Source: Oscillospiraceae bacterium
Lineage (GTDB): Bacteria; Bacillota; Clostridia; Oscillospirales; Ruminococcaceae
Direction: 5' to 3'
Assembly (NCBI GenBank): GCA_036635475.1
Contig: JAVWQH010000014.1
Location: 26,594-50,593, forward strand
Length of the DNA: 24,000 bases
Shown here: in pieces, positions 2,563 through 19,567 of the stretch
Layout: each line of letters starts with the position of its first letter
Position numbering within the stretch: the stretch's first letter is position 1
Notes under the pieces: model-generated
The model's input: the letters and a program-made list of their open reading frames with translations, nothing else
What the model was told of the DNA's origin: nothing
Database searches by the model: none
Program-made: the position numbers and the translations under genes

Positions 2563-3270
2563 TTAATATAGTTGTGTTTGAACACTGTCCTCGTGTAAAG
2601 CTTTGTTATTCAATAAAAATTCTTCACCCCATTTCAGTTCATCTTCCCAGTTGCCAGTTTTGTCTACAAACAGTGTCACATCAGTGTGCCAGTTATCATA
2701 TTTGTCTTTGTATCGTGGCATTGGGCGAGAAACAATGATATTTAAACTTTCCAATGCGGTAATGCAGGCACTGACAGTTTTAGGACTGAGAGCAGTATCG
2801 TCTGCTATAGTTTTAATTTGACGGTAGAAGAACTCTGGTTTCTTCTTGTGAGCATTGTTTTGCTGGTACTCACTGCGTCGAAGCTTGTTGACACGTATGT
2901 AGCAAAGAATTAATAGTAGTTTGTCGTAGGAAACATTACGTAGCTTTGATTTATATTCACGCATTTTCTGTAATTCGTTTAATGAAACAATAGCAAATGA
3001 ATTAGCTGTATCAAATTTTTCGGAATTTAACTGCAAAATACAAACTTTATATCCAGAATATTCACCAAACTCCTTTATAAAATATTCAAGTCCTTCCATT
3101 GTGTCAAGAATAGTAACGAACTTTCTGTTTATACCGTTTTTGTTTTTATCTGGCTTATAACCGCTGGACACCACTAAATCGTGTAACGTAATATAAGATT
3201 TGTCATCTAATGAGCGACGAATAAAAAGATATACAAAAACGGATAATCGCATTGGAAATAAATTTTTCAT
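2563..3270 (-). CDS. hypothetical protein, probable winged-HTH DNA-binding protein (replication-organizer or regulator-like)
   Basis: 235-aa ORF co-oriented with its neighbours. The segment IKTIADDTALSPKTVSACITALESLNII looks like an HTH. The family is not recognised. Confidence 0.6.
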   Translation of the reverse strand: MKNLFPMRLSVFVYLFIRRSLDDKSYITLHDLVVSSGYKPDKNKNGINRKFVTILDTMEGLEYFIKEFGEYSGYKVCILQLNSEKFDTANSFAIVSLNELQKMREYKSKLRNVSYDKLLLILCYIRVNKLRRSEYQQNNAHKKKPEFFYRQIKTIADDTALSPKTVSACITALESLNIIVSRPMPRYKDKYDNWHTDVTLFVDKTGNWEDELKWGEEFLLNNKALHEDSVQTQLY

Positions 3271-3462: not shown

Positions 3463-4281
3463 TTATGCAACTGGGTTTATTCTGTATTTTTCTTTCATTT
3501 TATTTTCCACATATATTAATCCAAATTCAGTAATACAAATGTCACGATTTATAATTGCATATTTACTATCTTTTGCAAACTGCGTTATTTTATAAACTTT
3601 TGATTTAGGTTTTGGCTTTTCTATAATATTTAACTCTGTTAACATTTTATTTACTTTTAATAATGTGGTGAAGTCTTTTGGATATTCATAATTAAGCAAT
3701 TCTTGTAGACACCGAAGTGAGTAAAACCGCACGTCTTTTCGATATCCTTTTTCCTGATTTAGAATGTAATCTCTTGCAATTTTTGGATTTTTCTTTTTTA
3801 TCAAAATATCATCTTCTGTAAGTTGATACTCGCAATTTAATAAAAACGGAGACGAGCGGGATAGTCTATATACCATAGATACGCTTGTTTTTATATCAAC
3901 CATGGGCAACATACTACGATGCCCAGATATAATTTCGGACATAGTATCTTCAGTGTTGTATCCATTGAACAAGGCATTATACTTTAGCACATATGCGTTT
4001 TCTCTTAGTATGAGTACAGTCTTTAATTTTAATTTAGATGTGTACTTAAAATTACTTTCAGTAATGGGGAATAGTTCTTCAATTGAATAATTAAAAACAG
4101 ATTCTCCATATTGGTTGTAGTCATCTTGTAATGATTGAATAAAATGTGTGTTGTCTGACAAACTTAATCTGTGTTCATTCCATCTTCTATCAATATTTAG
4201 AGTTTCACCTATGTAAACTTTATTGTTCATTGTATTTGTGATTTTATATATTCCCACTTTATTTTGCAATTTTATCCTCAT
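3463..4281 (-). CDS. GIY-YIG family homing endonuclease (free-standing)
   Basis: The N-terminus GIYKITNTMNNKVYIGETLNIDRRWNEHR carries the GIY...YIG...R...H/E motif spacing of I-TevI/Seg-type nucleases. A long basic C-terminal half is typical of DNA-binding modules. There is no SD, which is common for HEGs. Confidence 0.85.
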   Translation of the reverse strand: MRIKLQNKVGIYKITNTMNNKVYIGETLNIDRRWNEHRLSLSDNTHFIQSLQDDYNQYGESVFNYSIEELFPITESNFKYTSKLKLKTVLILRENAYVLKYNALFNGYNTEDTMSEIISGHRSMLPMVDIKTSVSMVYRLSRSSPFLLNCEYQLTEDDILIKKKNPKIARDYILNQEKGYRKDVRFYSLRCLQELLNYEYPKDFTTLLKVNKMLTELNIIEKPKPKSKVYKITQFAKDSKYAIINRDICITEFGLIYVENKMKEKYRINPVA

Positions 4282-4310: not shown

Positions 4311-5114
4311 TTATTTCAATTCAATCTGTTCAATCTGTGTGTCCAGCATTAGATCAAACAATTCCTTAAGCTTATAATCTGCGTCAATAGTATTAAGTGT
4401 GTACAGTCCATTATCTTGTAGGTTGTGCTGCGCACAATATTCTTCTTGGTATTCTCCCAAATCAATATCGTATGTATCTTGGAATTCAGTATATAGTTTG
4501 CGTAGCATCTGTTTGCGGATAATGCCGTTATATTCGGCTAATTTGTCTATCTTATCGTATGTTTTGCCCATCCAACGGGTATACCGGGGCTTGTATGGTT
4601 GTGGAAGCTGTGTTGTTATGAGAGCCGTTAGTGTGGTAATCTGTTGTTGTGCTTGCGTTTGGTTTGACTGCTGTAACGCTAATATGTCTGATTGTATTTT
4701 CAGTAATGTATCTGTGATTGGAGATAAATCTAGTTGCTGTGTATTTAAACGTCTCATTGCTATTTTTAATCCTTTTTCACAGGCTAGAAAATATTGTCTG
4801 GCTTGCTCTCCACGTTCTGATTTAGATAACATTGATAGTTGTTTTGCAAACTCTGATGTAAGTTTATAGTCGGTTGTTGGCTTAGGGTTATTTCGTTCTT
4901 CCTCTACGACGAACGGAATGTAATCTTTACTTATTTCTGCAAATTTATTTTTGAGTATGTTTGCGTTGCACCATCTTGAATAGTTTTTAGGCTCTAATTC
5001 TAAGAAGTCATAAAGTTTTTTTGCTGTAGTCATACCGTTGTCGTCGATACCAATAAGTATTTCAATAGGTGTTTTCTCTGTGATTTGGTTATTTGTTTTT
5101 TGTAATTTATCCAA
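4311..5114 (-). CDS. phage antirepressor-like protein (AntA-like N-terminus + KilAC/ANT domain)
   Basis: LTSEFAKQLSMLSKSERGEQARQYFLACEK matches the KilAC/ANT signature (G..aR.YFi..E). The start is TTG with a weak SD, so the start position is uncertain. Confidence 0.7.
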   Translation of the reverse strand: MDKLQKTNNQITEKTPIEILIGIDDNGMTTAKKLYDFLELEPKNYSRWCNANILKNKFAEISKDYIPFVVEEERNNPKPTTDYKLTSEFAKQLSMLSKSERGEQARQYFLACEKGLKIAMRRLNTQQLDLSPITDTLLKIQSDILALQQSNQTQAQQQITTLTALITTQLPQPYKPRYTRWMGKTYDKIDKLAEYNGIIRKQMLRKLYTEFQDTYDIDLGEYQEEYCAQHNLQDNGLYTLNTIDADYKLKELFDLMLDTQIEQIELK

Positions 5115-5415: not shown

Positions 5416-5609
5416 ATGTCTAACATTTTAGCTAACAAATAAGTTATATAACCATTGATTAAAATACCATTTTCATCAATTATAATAGAGTCTCTCAATT
5501 CATGTGTCATTTTATATAGACCATATTTACTTGCTAGTTTGCTAGTTGAAGGCAAATTATTTTTAAAATTATCGGGAATGATTATCTGTGATATATCTAT
5601 TTTCTGCAT
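5388..5609 (-). CDS. small ParB/Srx N-terminal-domain-like protein (73 aa)
   Basis: AAAGGAA SD. SIIIDENGILINGYITYLLAKMLDINILSVE resembles the ParB-N core (vvd.ng.liDGyhR..Aak.lg). The assignment is tentative. Confidence 0.5.
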   Translation of the reverse strand: MQKIDISQIIIPDNFKNNLPSTSKLASKYGLYKMTHELRDSIIIDENGILINGYITYLLAKMLDINILSVEII

Positions 5610-5642
5610 TTGTTAATTCCTTTACATTGTTTTAATAATTTC

Positions 5643-5670
5643 ATTATAGCATACAAGTAAAATTTGTCAA
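5643..5670 (-). promoter_or_regulatory. sigma-A-type promoter for the leftward arm
   Basis: The minus strand reads TTGACA (5670-5665), a 16-nt spacer, then TATAAT (5648-5643). It lies ~35 nt upstream of the 5609 start. The upstream flank ATAATATAAACGTTGACAAATT closely resembles the 9893 promoter region. Confidence 0.7.
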
Positions 5671-5671
5671 C

Positions 5672-5687
5672 GTTTATATTATTTCTA
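5672..5687 (-). repeat. partial copy of the dispersed motif, abutting the -35 of the leftward promoter
   Basis: GTTTATATTATTTCTA is identical to 5386-5401 and 5919-5934. Confidence 0.8.
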
Positions 5688-5706
5688 TTTGTTAATAAAT
5701 TGTAAA

Positions 5707-5948: not shown

Positions 5949-6581
5949 GAATATATTATTAAAATTTATTTGAGTATATTGTCATCTTCGGTAAGATTGA
6001 AATAATATGAAAATATAATTATCAACAATAGGTAGATGAATTAGACTATATTAGAGAAATAACAGTTAATTTGGTATATAAATATTTAAGTTTACTTGCT
6101 ATTAAATTTATTATTTATTTGTCATTTATTTAAAATATTGAAATTTATATGAGGGTTCGGATGAAGTTCCCATATTTAATATGTTTTTTTCGTATTATAG
6201 AAGTTATATTTAAGTATTTATATGGTTTATTTGAGAATTACATATATATTTAATTTATATTTTATTTGCATTAAGTTAGTATTTATTATGGTTTTGCCGA
6301 AGTGAGTACCGAAGAAAATGGAGTTATTTTAGGAGAATTTTGTAATATTTTATTTTGAAATTTTATTTCGGGATGGTGGAAAAGTTGTGTGAGTGAAGAT
6401 GAACTACTATGAGGTTTTTGCTCTACTGTACCACCTTGTAAAATGTAAATACACCCCACTTGAACCAATGATTAATGCACGTTTATTATATCAAGTAATT
6501 TATCATACATAATAAATGACTTAATATGCTGAATTTCAATAATAATAGCAATGCAACTTTAATAATAGCGGGAAATAGCAT

Positions 6582-7107: not shown

Positions 7108-7833
7108 ATGACAACTAAAACAACAACCGCCACCCATGACATTATTGAAGCCCTATCACGCAAGGCAACAGCCGGAACACTTAAACGGATATATGATGCA
7201 AGTGGCAACGATAATATACGCAAGCTGCGTACCGCCTTGCAACACGATTACAGCATACTTGATAATAATCTATCTGATACAATAAGCGACGCATACGATT
7301 GTCACTTAACCGCCTATAACTATCTACTAGAACAGTATAACAATGGTTTGACCGCTGATAATACAATTACAACCACCTTAAAAAATGGCACTGAAAAAAC
7401 CCGTACTATATATCAATGGGCATGCGTGGCAGTCCGCAAATACATTTATAGTAACAAGTCTATTGAGAATAACGGGAAATATATATATATTGAGGATATG
7501 GCCACTGAAAAAATGGACTCTAACTTAGCATTAGATTGTGAATATATCCGCTTAAATAAATACAGTGACTTAGCAAGTGACACACAATATGGAATAAGCG
7601 GTGCATACAATGATTATATAACTTATAATGATATTATTGCAAGTCTTAATCTAACACATAGACAATTAACAGTTGTTACAATGCGTATGCAAGGACTATC
7701 AACAGTCGCAATAGCGGATAAGCTACAAGTGTCGCAACAAGCTATTAGCAAAACATTAGCACAGGTGCAAACGTACGTTTCTACTCAATATCCTGATATG
7801 GTCAGACTTTTTAAAACCGCTAGAAAAGCATAA
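7108..7833 (+). CDS. sigma-70-family RNA polymerase sigma factor (phage/MGE-type)
   Basis: AAAGAGG SD. The C-terminus LTHRQLTVVTMRMQGLSTVAIADKLQVSQQAISKTLAQVQ is a typical region 4.2 HTH. DAYDCHLTAYNYLLEQ and TIYQWACVAVRKYIY are region-2-like. Confidence 0.7.
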   Translation: MTTKTTTATHDIIEALSRKATAGTLKRIYDASGNDNIRKLRTALQHDYSILDNNLSDTISDAYDCHLTAYNYLLEQYNNGLTADNTITTTLKNGTEKTRTIYQWACVAVRKYIYSNKSIENNGKYIYIEDMATEKMDSNLALDCEYIRLNKYSDLASDTQYGISGAYNDYITYNDIIASLNLTHRQLTVVTMRMQGLSTVAIADKLQVSQQAISKTLAQVQTYVSTQYPDMVRLFKTARKA

Positions 7834-7852
7834 AACCGCATAATAAACCACT

Positions 7853-7886
7853 TAACCGCCTTGAAATATAGGCGGTTATTTTTTTG
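7853..7886 (+). terminator. rho-independent terminator after the sigma gene
   Basis: 8-bp stem TAACCGCC (7853-7860) / GGCGGTTA (7871-7878), followed by a T7 run. Confidence 0.8.
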
Positions 7887-7905
7887 CAAAATTATTTTTA
7901 AAAAG

Positions 7906-7938
7906 GGTTGTAAGTAGTCGCTTTTTTTGTAGTAGAGT
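7906..7938 (+). promoter_or_regulatory. bipartite promoter-like repeat, copy A (GGTTGTAA-N15-GTAGTAGAGT)
   Basis: GGTTGTAA at 7906-7913 and GTAGTAGAGT at 7929-7938. Boxes and spacing are identical to copy B. It is a poor fit to sigma-A (TTGTAA-N19-TAGAGT). Confidence 0.45.
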
Positions 7939-8003
7939 ACAAGGCAAACAAGCGACACACAAAGACAATCTCAAAAAAGAATTTAAAAAAGTTTTAATTT
8001 TGA

Positions 8004-8036
8004 GGTTGTAACTACTTCAAAATTTTGTAGTAGAGT
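8004..8036 (+). promoter_or_regulatory. bipartite promoter-like repeat, copy B (GGTTGTAA-N15-GTAGTAGAGT)
   Basis: GGTTGTAA at 8004-8011 and GTAGTAGAGT at 8027-8036, 98 bp downstream of copy A. Both copies are followed by GCAAA(A)CAA. Confidence 0.45.
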
Positions 8037-8039
8037 GTA

Positions 8040-8590
8040 GAGCAAAACAAAAAACCCTTGCAAGTTGTTCACAGTAGTGGGTTAATTGTTACCCACAAAA
8101 TTAACCTTGCAAAATTCAACAGGTTAGACTTCAAGCCAACCGAAGTATAGCGGTTATGGCGGTAACACTCAACCAATGGGTGCGGTGGTTACGCTTGCGG
8201 ATTAAACGCAAGGCTCAACTGGTGAATATCGTAACAGGTGCGCTATAACCTAAATACGGCTTGTATGTGTAGATAAACGCAAAATTACAAGGACGCAAAA
8301 TACAAAGAAAACTACTTGACCGCTATATTCTTATGGGGTATGGCTCTAATGTTAAGCGGTCTGATGTTTCGCTATGCGGAAATAGGATTATCGTTGGAAG
8401 TCTGTTTTGTAAATTTGTTTGGATGCGTTGAAAAGTAAAATATAAAATGTGGCATTATGGCAATAGTCATGGTGCTTTTTATAGACCGCTTGTATTTATG
8501 AGGTGCAGGCGGTCTTGTTTAATGCAACTTTGGCTGTATAGTCAGAACCGTCTAAAGTCGGTATAAATGCAGATAGGACAAATTCACACA
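8040..8590 (+). ncRNA. candidate large structured non-coding RNA (class unknown)
   Basis: ~550 nt with no credible ORF or SD on either strand. GC is 42-52% by hand count of four 60-nt lines, against ~25% in a typical coding line. Nested helices include 8058-8064/8106-8112 around 8077-8082/8091-8096, and 8188-8193/8230-8235 around 8194-8199/8207-8212. Further helices are 8318-8324/8355-8361 and 8483-8489/8509-8515. The region lies directly downstream of the two promoter-like repeats. Confidence 0.4.
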
Positions 8591-8613
8591 AAAAATTATA
8601 TGGAGGGCATACA

Positions 8614-8883
8614 ATGAAAATGAAAAAAATAGTAATCGCACTATTAGCGTTGTCACTTTTGGCTGGCTGCGGGAACAAACAGCCTTGCAATGACAGTACT
8701 TATAATATGGACGGTAAAGTATCCGCTATTGACAGCGAATCAGTTGAATTTGTGACCGATGACGGGAATATATGGGCAATCGACTATAAAGATGGCTTTC
8801 AATTGAATCAAAATGTATCAATCATATTGGACGATATGGGGACAGAATCAATCTATGATGATACAATTCTTGAAGTAAAATAG
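8614..8883 (+). CDS. small secreted lipoprotein
   Basis: GGAGGG SD. MKMKKIVIALLALSLLAGCGNK is a signal peptide with an LLAGC lipobox. Confidence 0.85.
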   Translation: MKMKKIVIALLALSLLAGCGNKQPCNDSTYNMDGKVSAIDSESVEFVTDDGNIWAIDYKDGFQLNQNVSIILDDMGTESIYDDTILEVK

Positions 8884-8984
8884 CACCCTGATGAGTCGCT
8901 GAAAATTGCGACGAAACTATCTATAATGACAGTCGGTGCATACAGATTTACACAAAATATAAAACACATTAGGAGGATTTTATT

Positions 8985-9818
8985 ATGGAACTCAAGAAAA
9001 CATTATCCGAATTGCGTATAGACGCTGATACAGCAAAAAAAGAACTGAATGAGGCTATTTTGTCCGATTCATTCACTATGGTTGGCACAAAAAAGGATGC
9101 TATGGACAAGGCTGTAAAGGCTTATAATGACCTTGCTATTGTAATGGATTTCGCAACATTACGGGCAAAAATAGAGCCTATGAAGTCGGCTATTGAGCAA
9201 CTGTCTATCGCCATAATCGAAAGCAAGGCAAACAAGCAAAAAGACTCTGATATTATTACCTATACGCTGGAGCCTGCCACAAAGCAAATTGACTTGGTTG
9301 CATTTGATGAATTTTGTCAGCGTGAAAAGATGGATATCGCACACGATAAAATGTGGGCACATATGGTCGATAAAATGTGTTTGCTTGTAACTTATAAGAT
9401 TATGAAAGATGTCGGTAGCGATACTAAAAAGTTGGAAGACACTTATTATATTACCGATATTGCCAAACAAATTGACCTCGGCAAAACTCCAACGTCAAAT
9501 ACTCAAATTCTTAAGCAATTGCAATCCATTGTGGACGCTATCATTTATGAAACCGAAAATGACCATAACTCATACAAGGTTACCACCCATGACGCAAATT
9601 ATGTAGTTGCAACTATGACCAAACGTGGCGGAAGTGGCAAAGTTGTTGCACCTAGACCTGCAACTATGCACACACTTATTATGGACGTGCTGCATCGTAT
9701 TATTACCAATAGTGATTACAAGGTTGAATATATGACTAAAAAACAGGCAAAAGACGAAGTTGCCGATAGTGAAAAAACTAAGACTGTATCGTCTGAAAAC
9801 AAGCCAATTTCTGAATAA
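8985..9818 (+). CDS. hypothetical protein (277 aa)
   Basis: AGGAGG SD 7 nt upstream, and a long uninterrupted ORF. The internal + and - ORFs (9159..9470, 9409..9606, 9570..9854) are shadows. No family is recognised. Confidence 0.8.
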   Translation: MELKKTLSELRIDADTAKKELNEAILSDSFTMVGTKKDAMDKAVKAYNDLAIVMDFATLRAKIEPMKSAIEQLSIAIIESKANKQKDSDIITYTLEPATKQIDLVAFDEFCQREKMDIAHDKMWAHMVDKMCLLVTYKIMKDVGSDTKKLEDTYYITDIAKQIDLGKTPTSNTQILKQLQSIVDAIIYETENDHNSYKVTTHDANYVVATMTKRGGSGKVVAPRPATMHTLIMDVLHRIITNSDYKVEYMTKKQAKDEVADSEKTKTVSSENKPISE

Positions 9819-13199: not shown

Positions 13200-14228
13200 A
13201 TGAAAGATACACAAAAAATAGTTGATAAAATTCAAAAGCAGATTGAAAGCACAAAAAAGAAAATTGAAGCATTGTCTGGTGATTACCAAACAAATACATA
13301 TAAAAGAATGCGAGAAAAAGACAGCCGTGACGCTAAAATAAGCGGATACAGGATTGATATGGATATTCTAGGATACCTATTGAATAAGGCGACATCCGAC
13401 GATATAAACCAACTTGAAATTTCCTTGATAATAAAATCATTTAGAGATTATTTACATACTTGCTATTTAACTCATAAGCGTTTTATTGATGGTTCACCGC
13501 ATGCTCAAGATGTTAAGTTTCCAGAACCATCAAGTAGTTGTGCTGATTGGTATAACAAAGAACAAGTTCCAAAAGAACAATCCATTTTAAAACGTGCAGA
13601 CATCTATAACACAATAGACCTTATTTCAGCGGTAAATATCTATGGTGAGATTTTAGAAAACTCACATAAGCCTGTTGACCAAACAGTTCTAAAAATCAAA
13701 AAGTTAGAGCGTGAGTGCAAGATGATGCAGAAAGGTGACATCAATTTTACGCCAAGCAAAGTGGCTACAAGGCTTGTTGAGATTGCAGGCATACAATCCA
13801 ATGATACAGTATTAGAGCCATCAGCAGGCATAGGATCAGTTGCAGACGCTATTCGTACAGCAACAGATAACATTGATGTTGTAGAGCAGATGTCAAGCTT
13901 TAGAGAGCTACTGCAACTAAAGGGATACAACTTGGTGGGCGATGATTTCCTGCAATATCAAACCGATAAACAGTATGATGTCATTGTTGCAAACCCACCA
14001 TTTTCAGATGAACAAAATCACGTCAAGCATATGTATGAATTGCTAAAGCCGGGTGGAAGATTGGTTACAATTACATCACCTCATTGGACTTTTGCAAATG
14101 ATAAAAAGTCGGTTGATTTCCGTAATTGGGTGGAAGAACAAAATTCATATACCGAGAATTTAGAAAGCGGCACTTTTGAAATGACAGGCGTTGCAAGTAA
14201 AATTCTTGTCATTGATAAAGCAAGTTAA
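13200..14228 (+). CDS. SAM-dependent N6-adenine DNA methyltransferase (orphan, no cognate nuclease in view)
   Basis: Motif I is VLEPSAGIGSVADAI and motif IV is DVIVANPPFSDEQ, about 55 aa downstream. The N-terminal ~190 aa is coiled-coil or unknown. Confidence 0.75.
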   Translation: MKDTQKIVDKIQKQIESTKKKIEALSGDYQTNTYKRMREKDSRDAKISGYRIDMDILGYLLNKATSDDINQLEISLIIKSFRDYLHTCYLTHKRFIDGSPHAQDVKFPEPSSSCADWYNKEQVPKEQSILKRADIYNTIDLISAVNIYGEILENSHKPVDQTVLKIKKLERECKMMQKGDINFTPSKVATRLVEIAGIQSNDTVLEPSAGIGSVADAIRTATDNIDVVEQMSSFRELLQLKGYNLVGDDFLQYQTDKQYDVIVANPPFSDEQNHVKHMYELLKPGGRLVTITSPHWTFANDKKSVDFRNWVEEQNSYTENLESGTFEMTGVASKILVIDKAS

Positions 14229-14249
14229 AAAGGAATAGAGGTTGTTACG

Positions 14250-14696
14250 ATGAAACTACAATATATTGGAGTAGACGATTGGAATTTACATACTTACAAA
14301 GATGAAAGCGGTAGATTTTGGAAAGATGATACACCGTTTCAAGAAGCTTACGTTTCTTTGTATAGTGTAATTCCAAATGCTTATGATGGAGAACTTGCAC
14401 ATCCTCTAAGTCAAATTTGCAATAATAAAAATATCGAAATTGAGTTTATAGGAGGGCGGGTTATAGATAGTCCTTATAAACGTGATTATATGCTTCTAGG
14501 CAGGCTTCAATCGGATTGTGAATATTATTTAGGCTATGGGAACAGATACGCTGGTCATTTATGGGCAAAAACAGTAGAAAAACAAATTGAAAAAATGAAA
14601 GAATTATGGAATAGTTTTCCCAAAAACGGAAAACCCGAATGGTTGACTTGGAAGCAAATATTGGAATACGAAAAACAAATGACAGCAAAGGAGTAA
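14250..14696 (+). CDS. hypothetical protein (148 aa)
   Basis: GAGGT SD. The C-terminal half (MLLGRLQSDCEYYLGYGNRYAGHLWAKTVEKQIEKMKELWNSFP...KPEWLTW) resembles domains seen in phage and conjugative-element accessory proteins. The family is not named with confidence. Confidence 0.75.
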   Translation: MKLQYIGVDDWNLHTYKDESGRFWKDDTPFQEAYVSLYSVIPNAYDGELAHPLSQICNNKNIEIEFIGGRVIDSPYKRDYMLLGRLQSDCEYYLGYGNRYAGHLWAKTVEKQIEKMKELWNSFPKNGKPEWLTWKQILEYEKQMTAKE

Positions 14697-16512: not shown

Positions 16513-16775
16513 TCAATGAACAGTTTGTTGTGCATTTTGAGTAGTAAATGCTCCGTGAATTTCACGTACAACAATAGCTTGAGTCTTAGCTGACTACGTT
16601 GGATATAATATCACACCATAGAATGATGCTCTAGTTCTATGCAACTGTGCAGGCTCTGTAAAAGTCTTGAAAAATGACGAGGCGGTCAACCTGATTTGGA
16701 GATTTAATCTCAAATTATTTCCAACATTAGCGAAGGGCAACAACTCTGAAAGGAGAACGAAACTTGAGAGTATTC
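16513..16775 (+). ncRNA. omega-RNA / HEARO-like structured RNA upstream of IscB (exact 5' end and guide not determinable)
   Basis: A 251-nt ORF-free gap that abuts or overlaps the IscB start. GC is 40% in 16621-16680 by hand count. Helices: 16525-16533/16566-16574 (9 bp), 16617-16623/16635-16641 (7 bp) and 16699-16703/16707-16711. TTGTTG (16525-16530) can alternatively pair with CAACAA (16738-16743) next to the SD, which would form a pseudoknot-like fold. Confidence 0.6.
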
Positions 16776-18053
16776 GTTAAAAATCAAAGAAACGAGCCGC
16801 TTATGCCATGCTCAAATAGAAAAGCAAGAAAATTATTAAAAGAAAATAAAGCAAATATAATAAACTACAATCCTTTTACAATTCAATTATTATATTTTAC
16901 AGGCGAAACTAGACAAGAAATAAATGTTGGAGTTGATACTGGTGCGAAATATATTGGGATTGCAATCACATCGTATGACAAAATTTTAGCAAAGGGAGAA
17001 ATTGAACTAAGACAAGATATATCGTCTTTGTTAATTACAAGATCTGCACTAAGAGGCTCTCGTAGGAACCGAAAGACACGTTATCGCAAAGCAAGATGGT
17101 TGAACCGGAAAAGACCACTTGGGTGGGTTCCACCAAGCGTCCAGAGCAAGCTAAATTCAACATTTATGTGGATTGATAGGTTTGTATCGCTGGTACCTAA
17201 TGCCCAATTGAGCATTGAAGTTGGAAAATTTGACATTGCGAAAATGATTAATCCAAATATAGAAGGTGATGATTATCAAAATGGAGATACATGTGGATAT
17301 TATAATGTAAGGTATTTTGTGTTTGCGAGAGACAACTACACTTGCCAAGTGTGTAAAAAGAAAAATAAAATCTTAAATACACATCACATTTTATATCGTA
17401 CAATTGGAGGTACAAACAGGGCTAATAATTTAATAACGGTTTGCACCGATTGCCACACAGCAGAAAATCACAAATGCGGTGGCGTATTACACAATTGGAT
17501 GTTAAAAAAGAAAAAAGTCAAGAGATACAAAGAAGCGACGTTTATGAATATTGTAAGAAAGCGAATTTTTGAAAAATACCCTAATGCAAAAATCACTTAT
17601 GGATCAGAAACTTCTCCAAAACGAAAAAAGTTACAGTTAAATAAAACACATTACAATGATGCAATTGCAATTTGTGGGATTAATCAAATTAAACTTAATA
17701 TAGACGATTATTTTTATTATAGACAATTCAGGAAAAAGAAACGATCGTTGCATGAAGCGACACCGCGAAAAGGATTAAGCAAAAAGAACACAAGTAGTTT
17801 TAGGAACACTAAGAATGTAAAATTTAGAAACGGATATCATTTAAACGACAAAGTAAAATTTGAAGATCAGATTGGATGGATATCTGGGTTTTCAAGTAAA
17901 GAATGTTTTTTAAGAGATATAAATGGAGAAATAATTAAGACGAAAAGACGGAAAAACAATATAAATGTAAATATGAAAGAAATAGTGCTCGTTACTCATA
18001 ATAATGGATGGATATGCACAAACAAAGTATCTAAATAGACTGTGGTTTAATCA
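16516..18053 (+). mobile_element. possible non-autonomous IS200/IS605-family IscB element (no TnpA); boundaries speculative
   Basis: TAATCA lies immediately left of the RNA region (16510-16515) and again at 18048-18053, 10 nt after the IscB stop. In both places it is followed by (A)TGAA. The element is inserted between two SD-led operon genes. Confidence 0.25.
16764..18038 (+). CDS. iscB: IscB-type RNA-guided nuclease (PLMP domain, split RuvC, bridge helix, HNH)
   Basis: TTG start with AGGAG 8 nt upstream. Motifs in order: EPLMPCSNRKARKLL (PLMP), GVDTGAKYIGIA (RuvC-I), RGSRRNRKTRYRKARWLNRKR (Arg-rich bridge / RRXRR) and SIEVGKFD (RuvC-II). These are followed by CQVC...THHILYRTIGGTNRANNLITVCTDCH (HNH), THYNDAIAI (RuvC-III) and a C-terminal beta-rich tail. 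All catalytic residues appear intact. Confidence 0.85.
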   Translation: MRVFVKNQRNEPLMPCSNRKARKLLKENKANIINYNPFTIQLLYFTGETRQEINVGVDTGAKYIGIAITSYDKILAKGEIELRQDISSLLITRSALRGSRRNRKTRYRKARWLNRKRPLGWVPPSVQSKLNSTFMWIDRFVSLVPNAQLSIEVGKFDIAKMINPNIEGDDYQNGDTCGYYNVRYFVFARDNYTCQVCKKKNKILNTHHILYRTIGGTNRANNLITVCTDCHTAENHKCGGVLHNWMLKKKKVKRYKEATFMNIVRKRIFEKYPNAKITYGSETSPKRKKLQLNKTHYNDAIAICGINQIKLNIDDYFYYRQFRKKKRSLHEATPRKGLSKKNTSSFRNTKNVKFRNGYHLNDKVKFEDQIGWISGFSSKECFLRDINGEIIKTKRRKNNINVNMKEIVLVTHNNGWICTNKVSK

Positions 18054-18475: not shown

Positions 18476-19567
18476 ATGAAATTTACAATAAATACATATG
18501 ATTTTAAATCAGCAATGGAGAAAGCATACAAATGTGTCAATAAAAAGAGTGCAATGCCAGCATTACGAAACTTACTATTACATATTGAGAAAGGCAACAG
18601 TTACATAGTCGGCACAAATCTTGATAACTGGGTAGTTTCAAATGTACAAATCGACAATGTAGTAGAGCCGGCAGATATTGTTTTCGGAGATACAGACTCG
18701 CTGTTTAAAGCAATGAAATTCTTCAAGGGATTTGAGATTTCCTTTGACGTGCAAGACAGCAAAGTGGTTATCAGTTGCGGTGGGAAACAAACATCACAGA
18801 TATTCTCGGATAAAGACGAGTTTCTTCCAATACCCGAAATAGATATGGCAACAGCACAAGAATATAAATATAATATCAAAGACCTAAAAGAGCGTTTTAA
18901 TCTAGTCAAGTATGCAACAAGAAAAGACAATGTGAAACCAATCTTTACAGGTATACACTTTGACGGTACCAATATGGTTGCTCTTGACGGGTACAGAATA
19001 GCCATGAATACATCTAATGAACTTAATGTATCTGTACCATTTACGGCTCAATTAAACGGCTTGGCGTTGATGTGTGACGTGCTTAATAGGGATATAAACA
19101 TAGTGACAAACAATAAGTATATCAGCGTTTCTGATGGCGATACAACTGTAATGAGTAGACTGTTTGAAGGTGTTTATCTTGATTATAAGCAAGCAATTCC
19201 AAACAATGAAAATGAAGTGCAGGTTGATATGGCGGAATATTCAGAAACACTAAAATATTTTAAAGCGTTCAAAAAGTCTGGCAACAAGTGTCAAATAATT
19301 GCGTGGCTCAATGATAGTTTAATGTTACTTGGAACAGATAATTGTAGTGAGCTTAGCACACTTAAAGGGGAATTCCAAGACGCAATTGGATTCAACAATC
19401 AATATATGCTAGATGCCTTGACGCAATTCAAAGCGGAAAATGTAAAGTTTAATATGAGTAACAGTGTTACACCTATTGTTATCAGAGATGATGAGGGCAA
19501 TTTGGCATTAGTGTTGCCTATAAGACTTGCCGACGAAGTAGACGATAAAATGAAAAAATCTGCATAG
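18476..19567 (+). CDS. dnaN: DNA polymerase III beta subunit-like sliding clamp
   Basis: 363 aa, the length expected for a clamp. MKFTINTYDFKSAMEKAYKCV...PALRNLLL, KPIFTGIHFDGTNMVALDGYRIAM, RLFEGVYLDYKQAIP and TPIVIRDDEGNLALVLPIRL match conserved DnaN blocks. AAAGGAG SD. Confidence 0.8.
   Translation: MKFTINTYDFKSAMEKAYKCVNKKSAMPALRNLLLHIEKGNSYIVGTNLDNWVVSNVQIDNVVEPADIVFGDTDSLFKAMKFFKGFEISFDVQDSKVVISCGGKQTSQIFSDKDEFLPIPEIDMATAQEYKYNIKDLKERFNLVKYATRKDNVKPIFTGIHFDGTNMVALDGYRIAMNTSNELNVSVPFTAQLNGLALMCDVLNRDINIVTNNKYISVSDGDTTVMSRLFEGVYLDYKQAIPNNENEVQVDMAEYSETLKYFKAFKKSGNKCQIIAWLNDSLMLLGTDNCSELSTLKGEFQDAIGFNNQYMLDALTQFKAENVKFNMSNSVTPIVIRDDEGNLALVLPIRLADEVDDKMKKSA

Follow-up and report, generated by a model that had tools for sequence, protein, structure and literature searches.

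A conserved multi-domain non-coding RNA unit that contains RAGATH-16 and ends in a twister ribozyme in a Clostridia phage

What occupies the long gap between a sigma-like gene and a small lipoprotein-like gene in a phage region of an Oscillospiraceae bacterium assembly (GCA_036635475.1, contig JAVWQH010000014.1, positions 26,594 to 50,593 of the forward strand)? We call this whole stretch of 24,000 nucleotides (nt) the window, and all positions are counted from its first letter. A first-pass annotation had read positions 8040-8590 as a candidate large structured non-coding RNA, possibly of the ROOL or GOLLD kind. We found that the gap does contain a conserved, structured non-coding RNA of ~0.5 kb in a Firmicutes (Clostridia) phage, with covariation support for several helices. 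The reading of this region as a multi-domain RNA unit that contains the RAGATH-16 motif and ends in a twister ribozyme is well supported. The feature extends over ~8046-8580, of which the last 65 nt are a separate recognisable element, the twister (Table 1).

The gap, put at ~730 bp in the first-pass annotation, has ~728 nt left after the terminator of the sigma-like gene and before the next open reading frame (ORF), which has a ribosome-binding site. It was correctly described as free of ORFs: the longest one starting with ATG, GTG or TTG inside it encodes 40 amino acids (aa), and no frame of 8040-8590 stays free of stops for more than 53 codons. A shared reading frame was sought among the homologous regions described below and none was found, nor do these relatives carry a conserved protein-coding frame, which would have pointed to a decayed gene. 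The GC enrichment is real but modest and smaller than had been estimated by hand count. GC content is 39.7% in 8040-8590, compared to 32.6% in the whole window and 31-38% in the larger ORFs, and the 15 G+C given for a typical 60-nt coding line was too low, as the mean 60-nt line contains 19.6. The helix-rich character holds: the minimum free energy (MFE) of 8044-8520 is -143.2 kcal/mol versus -119.5 +/- 6.4 kcal/mol for dinucleotide shuffles (n = 100, z = -3.70), none of which was equally stable (0/100).

No match to Rfam was found at gathering score anywhere in the window. A relaxed scan by E-value gave three full-length sub-threshold matches, RAGATH-16 and twister-P1 within the gap and HEARO outside it. 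The suggested likeness to ROOL and GOLLD was not borne out, since cmscan found neither family at gathering score nor at E ≤ 10 over 7700-8750. The window RNA resembles these families in size class, phage location, number of helices and the absence of a described function, but has a different architecture, in which a particular protein gene and self-cleaving ribozymes accompany it. Rather than a single unmatched RNA, the region is a composite that includes two described motifs, RAGATH-16 and the type-P1 twister, both below their Rfam thresholds.

BLASTN revealed no relative of the gap among 50,697 phage records. Related loci, of which ~25 were fetched from gut Clostridia phages and metagenome-assembled genomes (MAGs) and which are numbered here with an L, were reached by other routes. 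The sigma-like protein gave 15 homologues and the contigs L001, L003, L004, L006/L007 and L008, in which a non-coding gap of 0.8-1.07 kb follows the sigma-like gene. These gaps align with that of the window over their full length, including the terminator, the repeat boxes, the leader and the element just before the next gene, and contain a twister (L001 and L004) or RAGATH-16 (L001 and L006) at the same places as in the window. A DNA pattern derived from the conserved core led to L010 in IMG/VR and to three MAG loci (Eubacteriales, Oscillospiraceae and Clostridia); within IMG/VR a first such pattern gave nothing and a second gave 8 loci, L010 alone being real. Single-protein scans of IMG/VR with the sigma-like protein and with a conserved 277-aa protein encoded downstream of the RNA also gave nothing, a profile of the 277-aa protein gave 20 IMG/VR loci on phage contigs of 5-125 kb, most of them > 40 kb, and exact-protein look-ups added L041-L048.

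A covariance model of the RNA core, R1, was built from nine copies (the window and 8 relatives). We found the R1 core on the same strand upstream of a homologue of the 277-aa protein in 25 loci, usually at a distance of 350-550 nt and further in L036, and then also in L044, L047 and L048, at 320-1,700 nt. The shared order is a sigma-like gene, a terminator, 1-7 tandem copies of a promoter-like repeat, an RNA of 0.45-0.6 kb and a gene for a conserved protein of 250-305 aa. Other genes separate the RNA from the 277-aa-family gene by 1-2 kb in L047 and L048. In L017 a short version of the RNA, equipped with repeats and a terminator of its own, is surrounded by unrelated genes, and there is no 277-aa-family gene.

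The RAGATH-16 match (RF03047) covers the full 72-nt model, with an E-value of 8.4e-6 in the local scan and 1.9e-4 in the whole window. It shows the features of that motif, namely a hairpin, then P2 enclosing P3, with the conserved asymmetric internal loop GUGAA.AUC, and ribozymes nearby (a twister 279 nt and a hammerhead 646 nt downstream). The window copy scores 90 bits with R1. As R1 also finds six copies which pass the Rfam gathering score (L027 with 91.6, L023 with 89.8, L036 with 76.9, L026 with 75.1, L021 with 72.2 and L038 with 67.1 bits), we regard the window element as a divergent but genuine RAGATH-16. Five of these six occupy the same position as the window copy relative to the 277-aa-family gene; the copy in L036 is ~1.9 kb upstream of it. 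The covariation check that had been proposed was made on a model-fitted alignment with our own counts against shuffles, and supports several helices. In the R1 core alignment 84% of cells are paired versus 59% in shuffles, with 0/500 shuffles reaching 84%, 19/19 pairs have changes on both sides, and slid controls reach 30-44%. P2 is 98.4% paired with 3/3 pairs covarying; P3 is optional, being missing in L003 and L017.

Two subtypes of the RNA differ in the sequence 3' of P2, and module order and spacing are kept in both. The window subtype has an extension outside the Rfam model, comprising P5 (86% paired) and P6 (97.7% paired), in which every pair is changed on both sides. P5 variants include GCACAC/GUGUGC, GCCUAU/AUGGGC, GCGCU/AGCGC and ACAUU/AAUGU. 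The P5 register of the window, with its AUAAA bulge, was read by eye and is not reproduced by the R1 alignment. A RAGATH-4 match (105 bits, gathering score 104.4) was observed in L030 at 2769-2901 and, because of its place between RAGATH-16 and the 277-aa homologue, RAGATH-4 may in the other subtype form the 3' domain of this long RNA.

The twister match (RF03160) covers model positions 1-68, with an E-value of 2.8e-8 in the local scan and 6.5e-7 in the whole window. P1, P2, P3 and P4 all form, in type-P1 order, and the conserved unpaired nucleotides are all present: UAA at the cleavage site, GU..AAG in L4 (G-U-N-N-N-A-A-G), UAAA and GA. Across 7 twisters (the window and six related copies), P1-P4 and both pseudoknots are 95.5% paired, a value reached by 0/500 shuffles, and 15/22 pairs are changed on both sides. 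The two pseudoknots, in which the P4 loop pairs with the 5' internal loop in one case and with the 3' strand in the other, are 100% paired in 7/7 copies. Those of the window consist of A-U/C-G in one and C-G/U-A/A-U in the other and are compensated relative to the consensus and to L001, L004 and L018. Unlike the Rfam consensus, the window copy is changed at G12, C41, C42, C46, G62 and G63, six nucleotides that compensate pairwise as A-U for G-C (T2) and U-A and A-U for C-G (T1); a seventh change, C14 to U, is outside the pseudoknot pairs. By analogy with published twisters, the window twister would cleave itself between U8520 and A8521.

The element that forms the 3' end is interchangeable among relatives. 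Besides the window, L001, L004, L018 and L044 have a twister at the 3' end of the RNA, and L047 has one further downstream. A minimal ribozyme resembling that of hepatitis delta virus (HDV) takes its position in L006 and L020, and an intrinsic terminator is present alone in L017 and in addition to the HDV-like ribozyme in L006. HDV-like ribozymes are also found upstream of the RNA in L020 and L032. In six of them (one in L006, two in L020 and three in L038) P1, P2, P3 and P1.1 reach 97% pairing, with covariation in P1 and P2. Minimal HDV-like ('theta') ribozymes occur in gut Caudoviricetes, and those which are not associated with tRNAs have no known function (bioRxiv 10.1101/2023.06.13.544163). 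The HDV-like ribozymes of L006, L020, L032 and L038 fit the description of the latter in their location, being in non-coding DNA and in sense with the neighbouring genes, but the window has none and in relatives they take the position of the twister. Separately, twisters were seen to punctuate successive intergenic regions of one operon in L031 (3771-3832, 4021-4088 and 4647-4718) and L040 (~313 and ~2027), and minimal HDV-like ribozymes do so within one operon of L038 (~1334, ~2068 and ~3295).

The remaining domains of the RNA are conserved to different extents. The 5' hairpin domain is the least certain part, as it is poorly conserved among relatives. It is followed by a pseudoknotted hairpin whose pairings were read directly from the listed sequences: for the stem, the window has ACUUC/GAAGU, L001 ACCUC/GAGGU, L003 CCUC/GGGG and L044 ACUUU/AAAGU, and in the loop pairing L044 has AGUC/GACU in place of AACC/GGUU and L003 has CAC/GUG in place of GCC/GGC. 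An analogous pseudoknot, GUCU-ACCUU-AGAC..AAGGU, is found in L017, L021, L047, L048 and L010. The junction domain of the window, assigned by eye and from the MFE structure with moderate confidence, is homologous by position to a three-way junction CUUGNNN/NNNCAAG in relatives (CUUGUUU/AAACAAG versus CUUGAAU/AUUCAAG). Twin C(YNAG)G hairpins characterise these RNAs: 18 of 21, from both subtypes and with very different stems, have exactly two, and the density of such hairpins is 3.1 per kb in the RNAs versus 0.027 per kb elsewhere in the same loci. Their loops resemble stable YNMG-type tetraloops. Binding of CsrA by the twin hairpins, whose loops resemble the motif CAAGGAUGU obtained by systematic evolution of ligands by exponential enrichment (SELEX), was considered and rejected, as C(YNAG)G alone is conserved and GGA is not; stem covariation also fixes a register that pairs the second G. 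The second hairpin of the 3' domain is found again in L047 and L018, where its outer stems covary (AUACUGUUU/AAACGGUAU and AGCCGUA/UACGGCU, respectively). The P5/P6 extension, the 5' pseudoknot, the junction domain and the 3' hairpins are all missing from the Rfam model of RAGATH-16, and both here and in all relatives the motif is one domain of an RNA of 0.45-0.6 kb.

Table 1 Features of the window discussed in the text, with positions counted from its first letter.
Feature	Position	Strand	Remarks
O-like replication initiator gene	2563-3270		Near the gap
GIY-YIG homing endonuclease	3463-4281	-	
AntA-like anti-repressor	4311-5114	-	
Sigma-like gene	7108-7833	+	Directly precedes the terminator
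Intrinsic terminator of the sigma-like gene	7853-7885	+	9-bp stem (7853-7878) then TTTTTTT; upstream boundary of the unit
Promoter-like repeat, copy 1 (GGTTGTAA..N..TTTTGTAGTAGAGTACAAGGCAAA)	7906-7948	+	Direct-repeat family D1; box conserved in aligned relatives
Promoter-like repeat, copy 2	8004-8046	+	Inferred transcription start near its 3' end, ~8042-8047
5' hairpin domain	8057-8113	+	UUGCAAG/CUUGCAA enclosing GUGGGU/ACCCAC; in MFE and centroid structures
Pseudoknotted hairpin	8128-8160	+	Stem 8128-8132 with 8142-8146; loop 8135-8141 with 8152-8155 and 8158-8160
Divergent RAGATH-16 domain	8167-8238	+	RF03047 match at 8168-8237, and model R1
RAGATH-16 hairpin	8167-8181		
RAGATH-16 P2	8188-8192 with 8231-8235		
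RAGATH-16 P3	8194-8199 with 8207-8212		
RAGATH-16 conserved internal loop (..GGUGAAUAUC)	8213-8230	+	
P5	8239-8245 with 8270-8272 and 8278-8281	+	3' extension beyond the Rfam model (8239-8281); encloses AACCUAAA and P6
P6 hairpin	8254-8257 with 8263-8266	+	Loop GGCUU
Junction domain	8318-8381	+	Helix 8318-8323 with 8356-8361 enclosing hairpin 8325-8341; second hairpin 8367-8381
3' domain, two hairpins	8451-8476 and 8483-8515	+	Both terminator-like by scan; second with UUAUGAG loop
Type-P1 twister ribozyme	8516-8580	+	RF03160 full-model match; predicted cleavage U8520/A8521
89-aa lipoprotein-like ORF	8614-8883	+	Between twister and hammerhead; weak lipobox matches
Type I hammerhead ribozyme	8883-8939	+	Predicted cleavage after C8934
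Conserved 277-aa protein gene	8985-9818	+	Downstream of the RNA
N6 DNA methyltransferase, then LPD11-domain protein	13200-14696	+	
HEARO (IscB omega-RNA) match	16525-16744	+	72.5 bits, gathering score 83, E 4.3e-13
IscB ORF	16764-18038	+	RRXRR and HNH domains; directly after HEARO
DNA polymerase III beta clamp (sliding clamp)	18476-19567	+	

Two tandem repeats ahead of the RNA, as first annotated, were recovered as 43-nt copies with 72% identity, 98 nt apart; their promoter function is putative. Their 17-nt core is found at only these two sites in the 24 kb, with a chance expectation of 0.15, and the terminator before them is at the same position in L001, L004, L006, L008, L018 and L021. Across phages of differing GC content the boxes keep -35/-10-like blocks and variable spacers. 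Upstream of the RNA in L030 (2065-2520) the promoter-like box was observed multiplied to 6-7 copies, one every 57 nt; L031 (2254-2493) has 3 copies, one every 80 nt, L026 (2110-2481) has 4, and in L017 (~5500-5700) the box is likewise multiplied in tandem.

How might such a unit work? With motif identity, conservation, synteny, covariation and the interchangeable 3'-end-forming element as the observed ground, our preferred reading, to which we would give a probability of about 0.5, is a stand-alone, promoter-driven phage non-coding RNA of ~475 nt, released by self-cleavage of the twister. The tandem repeats just past the sigma-gene terminator would act as phage promoters and drive an RNA of ~8046-8520, in which the 5' hairpin, the pseudoknot, the divergent RAGATH-16 core, P5/P6, the junction domain and the two 3' hairpins follow in this order. 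Cleavage by the twister would set the structured RNA free with a terminal 2',3'-cyclic phosphate; the message downstream would start with a 5'-OH and with the twister fold. The hammerhead would likewise part the small lipoprotein cistron from that of the conserved 277-aa protein. The functional product would then be the free RNA, probably acting with the neighbouring conserved protein or on a host target, and we infer that it acts after release rather than only in cis. This reading is favoured because three different devices define the 3' end in different phages, because in L017 the RNA has a terminator of its own and unrelated neighbouring genes, and because some members carry ribozymes on both sides.

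Several points weigh against it. Both curated matches fall short of their gathering scores, with 39.7 bits versus 65.6 for RF03047 and 44.2 bits versus 67.2 for RF03160, the low twister score being due to the fact that the departures from the consensus, C14 to U excepted, are three compensated pseudoknot pairs. The covariation alignment was fitted to R1, which favours structure. A sigma-70 consensus scan did not call the repeats, which is why their promoter function is given here as putative. The junction domain of the window has no C(YNAG)G hairpins and shows loops UUAUG and UAU at its hairpins instead; since the twin hairpins are present in 18 of 21 RNAs, the window copy may be an atypical or partly degenerate member in this domain. 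Neither a recognisable ribozyme nor a terminator was found between RNA and gene in L010, L021, L022 and L023-L030, and the sole pointer to a protein partner is adjacency.

The many relatives without a 3'-end device fit a plain 5' leader as well, in which the attached RNA would control the downstream genes in cis, by attenuation or antitermination at the 3' hairpins or through translation or stability, and the ribozyme would merely trim the RNA afterwards and leave the message with a 5'-OH end. We consider a leader a serious alternative, though less likely than the stand-alone RNA. It would account for the RNA always being on the same strand directly upstream of one gene family, and the literature suggests that bacterial ribozymes process polycistronic transcripts (PMC6765202). 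Two terminator-like hairpins are also present at the 3' end of the window RNA (a scan found 5 in 7700-9050 versus 0.9 expected), and such hairpins occur in L001, L004, L006, L017, L018 and L047. However, no terminator-like hairpin with a U-run was found in the 3' domain of L003, L010, L020, L022, L026, L030, L031 or L044, and the "U-run" of the last hairpin in the window is part of the twister itself. An RNA of ~450-600 nt with several pseudoknotted domains also far exceeds known attenuators, and the intervening genes in L047 and L048 and the absence of any such gene beside the RNA of L017 do not suit control in cis. A conserved attenuator is not supported, as terminators are not consistently present among relatives, and the leader of a structural late operon was rejected, as the downstream genes are of replication and anti-restriction type and not virion genes.

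It is unlikely that the gap holds no single large RNA but several small elements that are independent of each other (promoters, a RAGATH-16 small RNA and a twister), joined by drifting spacer that folds by chance. It would explain why matches to curated families are limited to 8168-8237 and 8516-8580, why conservation is poor in the 5' leader and in parts of 8290-8450 and why the window does not have the twin-hairpin loops of its relatives, but P5/P6, the 5' pseudoknot, the junction helix and the UUAUGAG hairpin are kept with compensatory changes among loci whose proteins are 30-60% identical, and both subtypes keep module order and spacing. We judge a decayed pseudogene or a DNA-level element, such as an iteron replication origin or a packaging site, to be very improbable. 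The tandem direct repeats and the nearby O-like replication initiator gene would be in keeping with a DNA-level element, yet substitutions preserve base pairs, including those of pseudoknots, on one strand only, and the repeat boxes keep the block-and-spacer pattern described above. The pseudogene was rejected, as homologues share no frame.

Downstream of the twister, the small lipoprotein-like gene is followed by a second ribozyme, a type I hammerhead with the sequence GCACC-CUGAUGAG-UCGC..GCGA-CGAAAC-UAUC..GACA-GUC-GGUGC, which overlaps the stop codon of this ORF by one base. The core CUGAUGA...GAAA...UH cleavage site is present, as are stems I, II and III, with stem I open and one A-C mismatch in stem III. 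Rfam matches are weak and below threshold: 24.1 bits for Hammerhead_3 (truncated; gathering score 48.5) and 19.4 bits for RAGATH-1-hammerhead (gathering score 56.3). Five more hammerheads with covarying stems I-III were found in L001 (~3093-3150), L023, L027, L030 and L036, and hammerheads follow the 277-aa homologue in L023, L025, L027, L028, L030, L036 and L037. L001 has the same twister-gene-hammerhead layout around a gene of 81 aa (2867-3112), the product of which gave no BLASTP alignment with the 89-aa protein. The small genes between twister and hammerhead look like variable cassettes bounded by ribozymes. In L047 and L048 several small genes are inserted at the cassette position.

Bacterial twisters and hammerheads are known to share neighbouring genes, for a reason which 'has not yet been determined' (2019 review, PMC6765202). 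This locus and its relatives provide a concrete, repeated layout in which a large RNA and the cistrons that follow it are separated by ribozymes of interchangeable class (twister, minimal HDV-like or hammerhead), with unrelated small genes as cassettes between two ribozymes in two cases. A vague association of ribozymes with genes is thereby turned into testable predictions, namely that the RNA has a defined 3' end at 8520 and is released as a species of ~475 nt, with one protein as its candidate partner. The catalogued orphan motif RAGATH-16 becomes one domain of a much larger RNA, linked to a sigma-like gene and an uncharacterised protein family. Both motifs are already known, and their copies in the window are below Rfam thresholds; a full-text literature search found no paper naming RAGATH-16. 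What appears to be new is the 0.45-0.6-kb architecture around RAGATH-16, its fixed synteny with the sigma-like gene and the uncharacterised protein, and the interchangeable 3'-end ribozymes, none of which we found in Rfam or the searchable literature.

The 277-aa protein belongs to a family of 58 homologues, none of which is named or has a Pfam domain. Its AlphaFold model has a predicted local distance difference test score (pLDDT) of 87 and a predicted template modelling score (pTM) of 0.80. Foldseek found no fold match in PDB at E < 0.001 and two uncharacterised phage proteins only in BFVD, and profile searches of Pfam, PHROGs and PDB gave nothing informative, with no nuclease or other recognisable domain. 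A bolder idea, which we consider doubtful, is that RAGATH-16 is the 5' domain of a previously undescribed class of large phage RNAs (0.45-0.6 kb, with ribozyme-defined ends) that would form a ribonucleoprotein with the adjacent protein of 250-305 aa. In analogy to omega-RNA/IscB, reRNA/TnpB or phi29 pRNA, the two would make up a phage system of a new kind, either RNA-scaffolded or RNA-guided. Such a system, if real, would explain why several classes of self-cleaving ribozyme cluster around the 277-aa gene family. HEARO/omega-RNA with IscB and the RAGATH-18 reRNA with IS607 TnpB likewise pair a structured RNA with an adjoining conserved protein gene, and RAGATH-18 was catalogued in the RAGATH series before it was shown to be a guide-RNA scaffold (PMC11061315). 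Unlike these systems, the 277-aa neighbour has no recognisable nuclease domain and no guide-like segment was identified in the RNA, and the analogy serves as a lead only.

A conserved three-hairpin motif was also observed in two copies in L047 (~900-1050) and one in L017 (~6015-6090). It consists of a hairpin with a GAGNAU loop, a YNUAAU linker, a hairpin with a GGAGGYU loop, a third hairpin and GGACA; the stem of the first hairpin covaries between copies, and no Rfam match was found at E ≤ 1. The genes flanking the RNA in the window are of early, replication and anti-restriction type, with no virion genes among them. Also encoded in this operon are DUF4121, a DNA methyltransferase, an LPD11 protein, the sliding clamp, IscB with its HEARO RNA and Ant-like proteins, and the HEARO match and the ORF that follows it are an IscB-type RNA-guided nuclease pair inside the phage operon.

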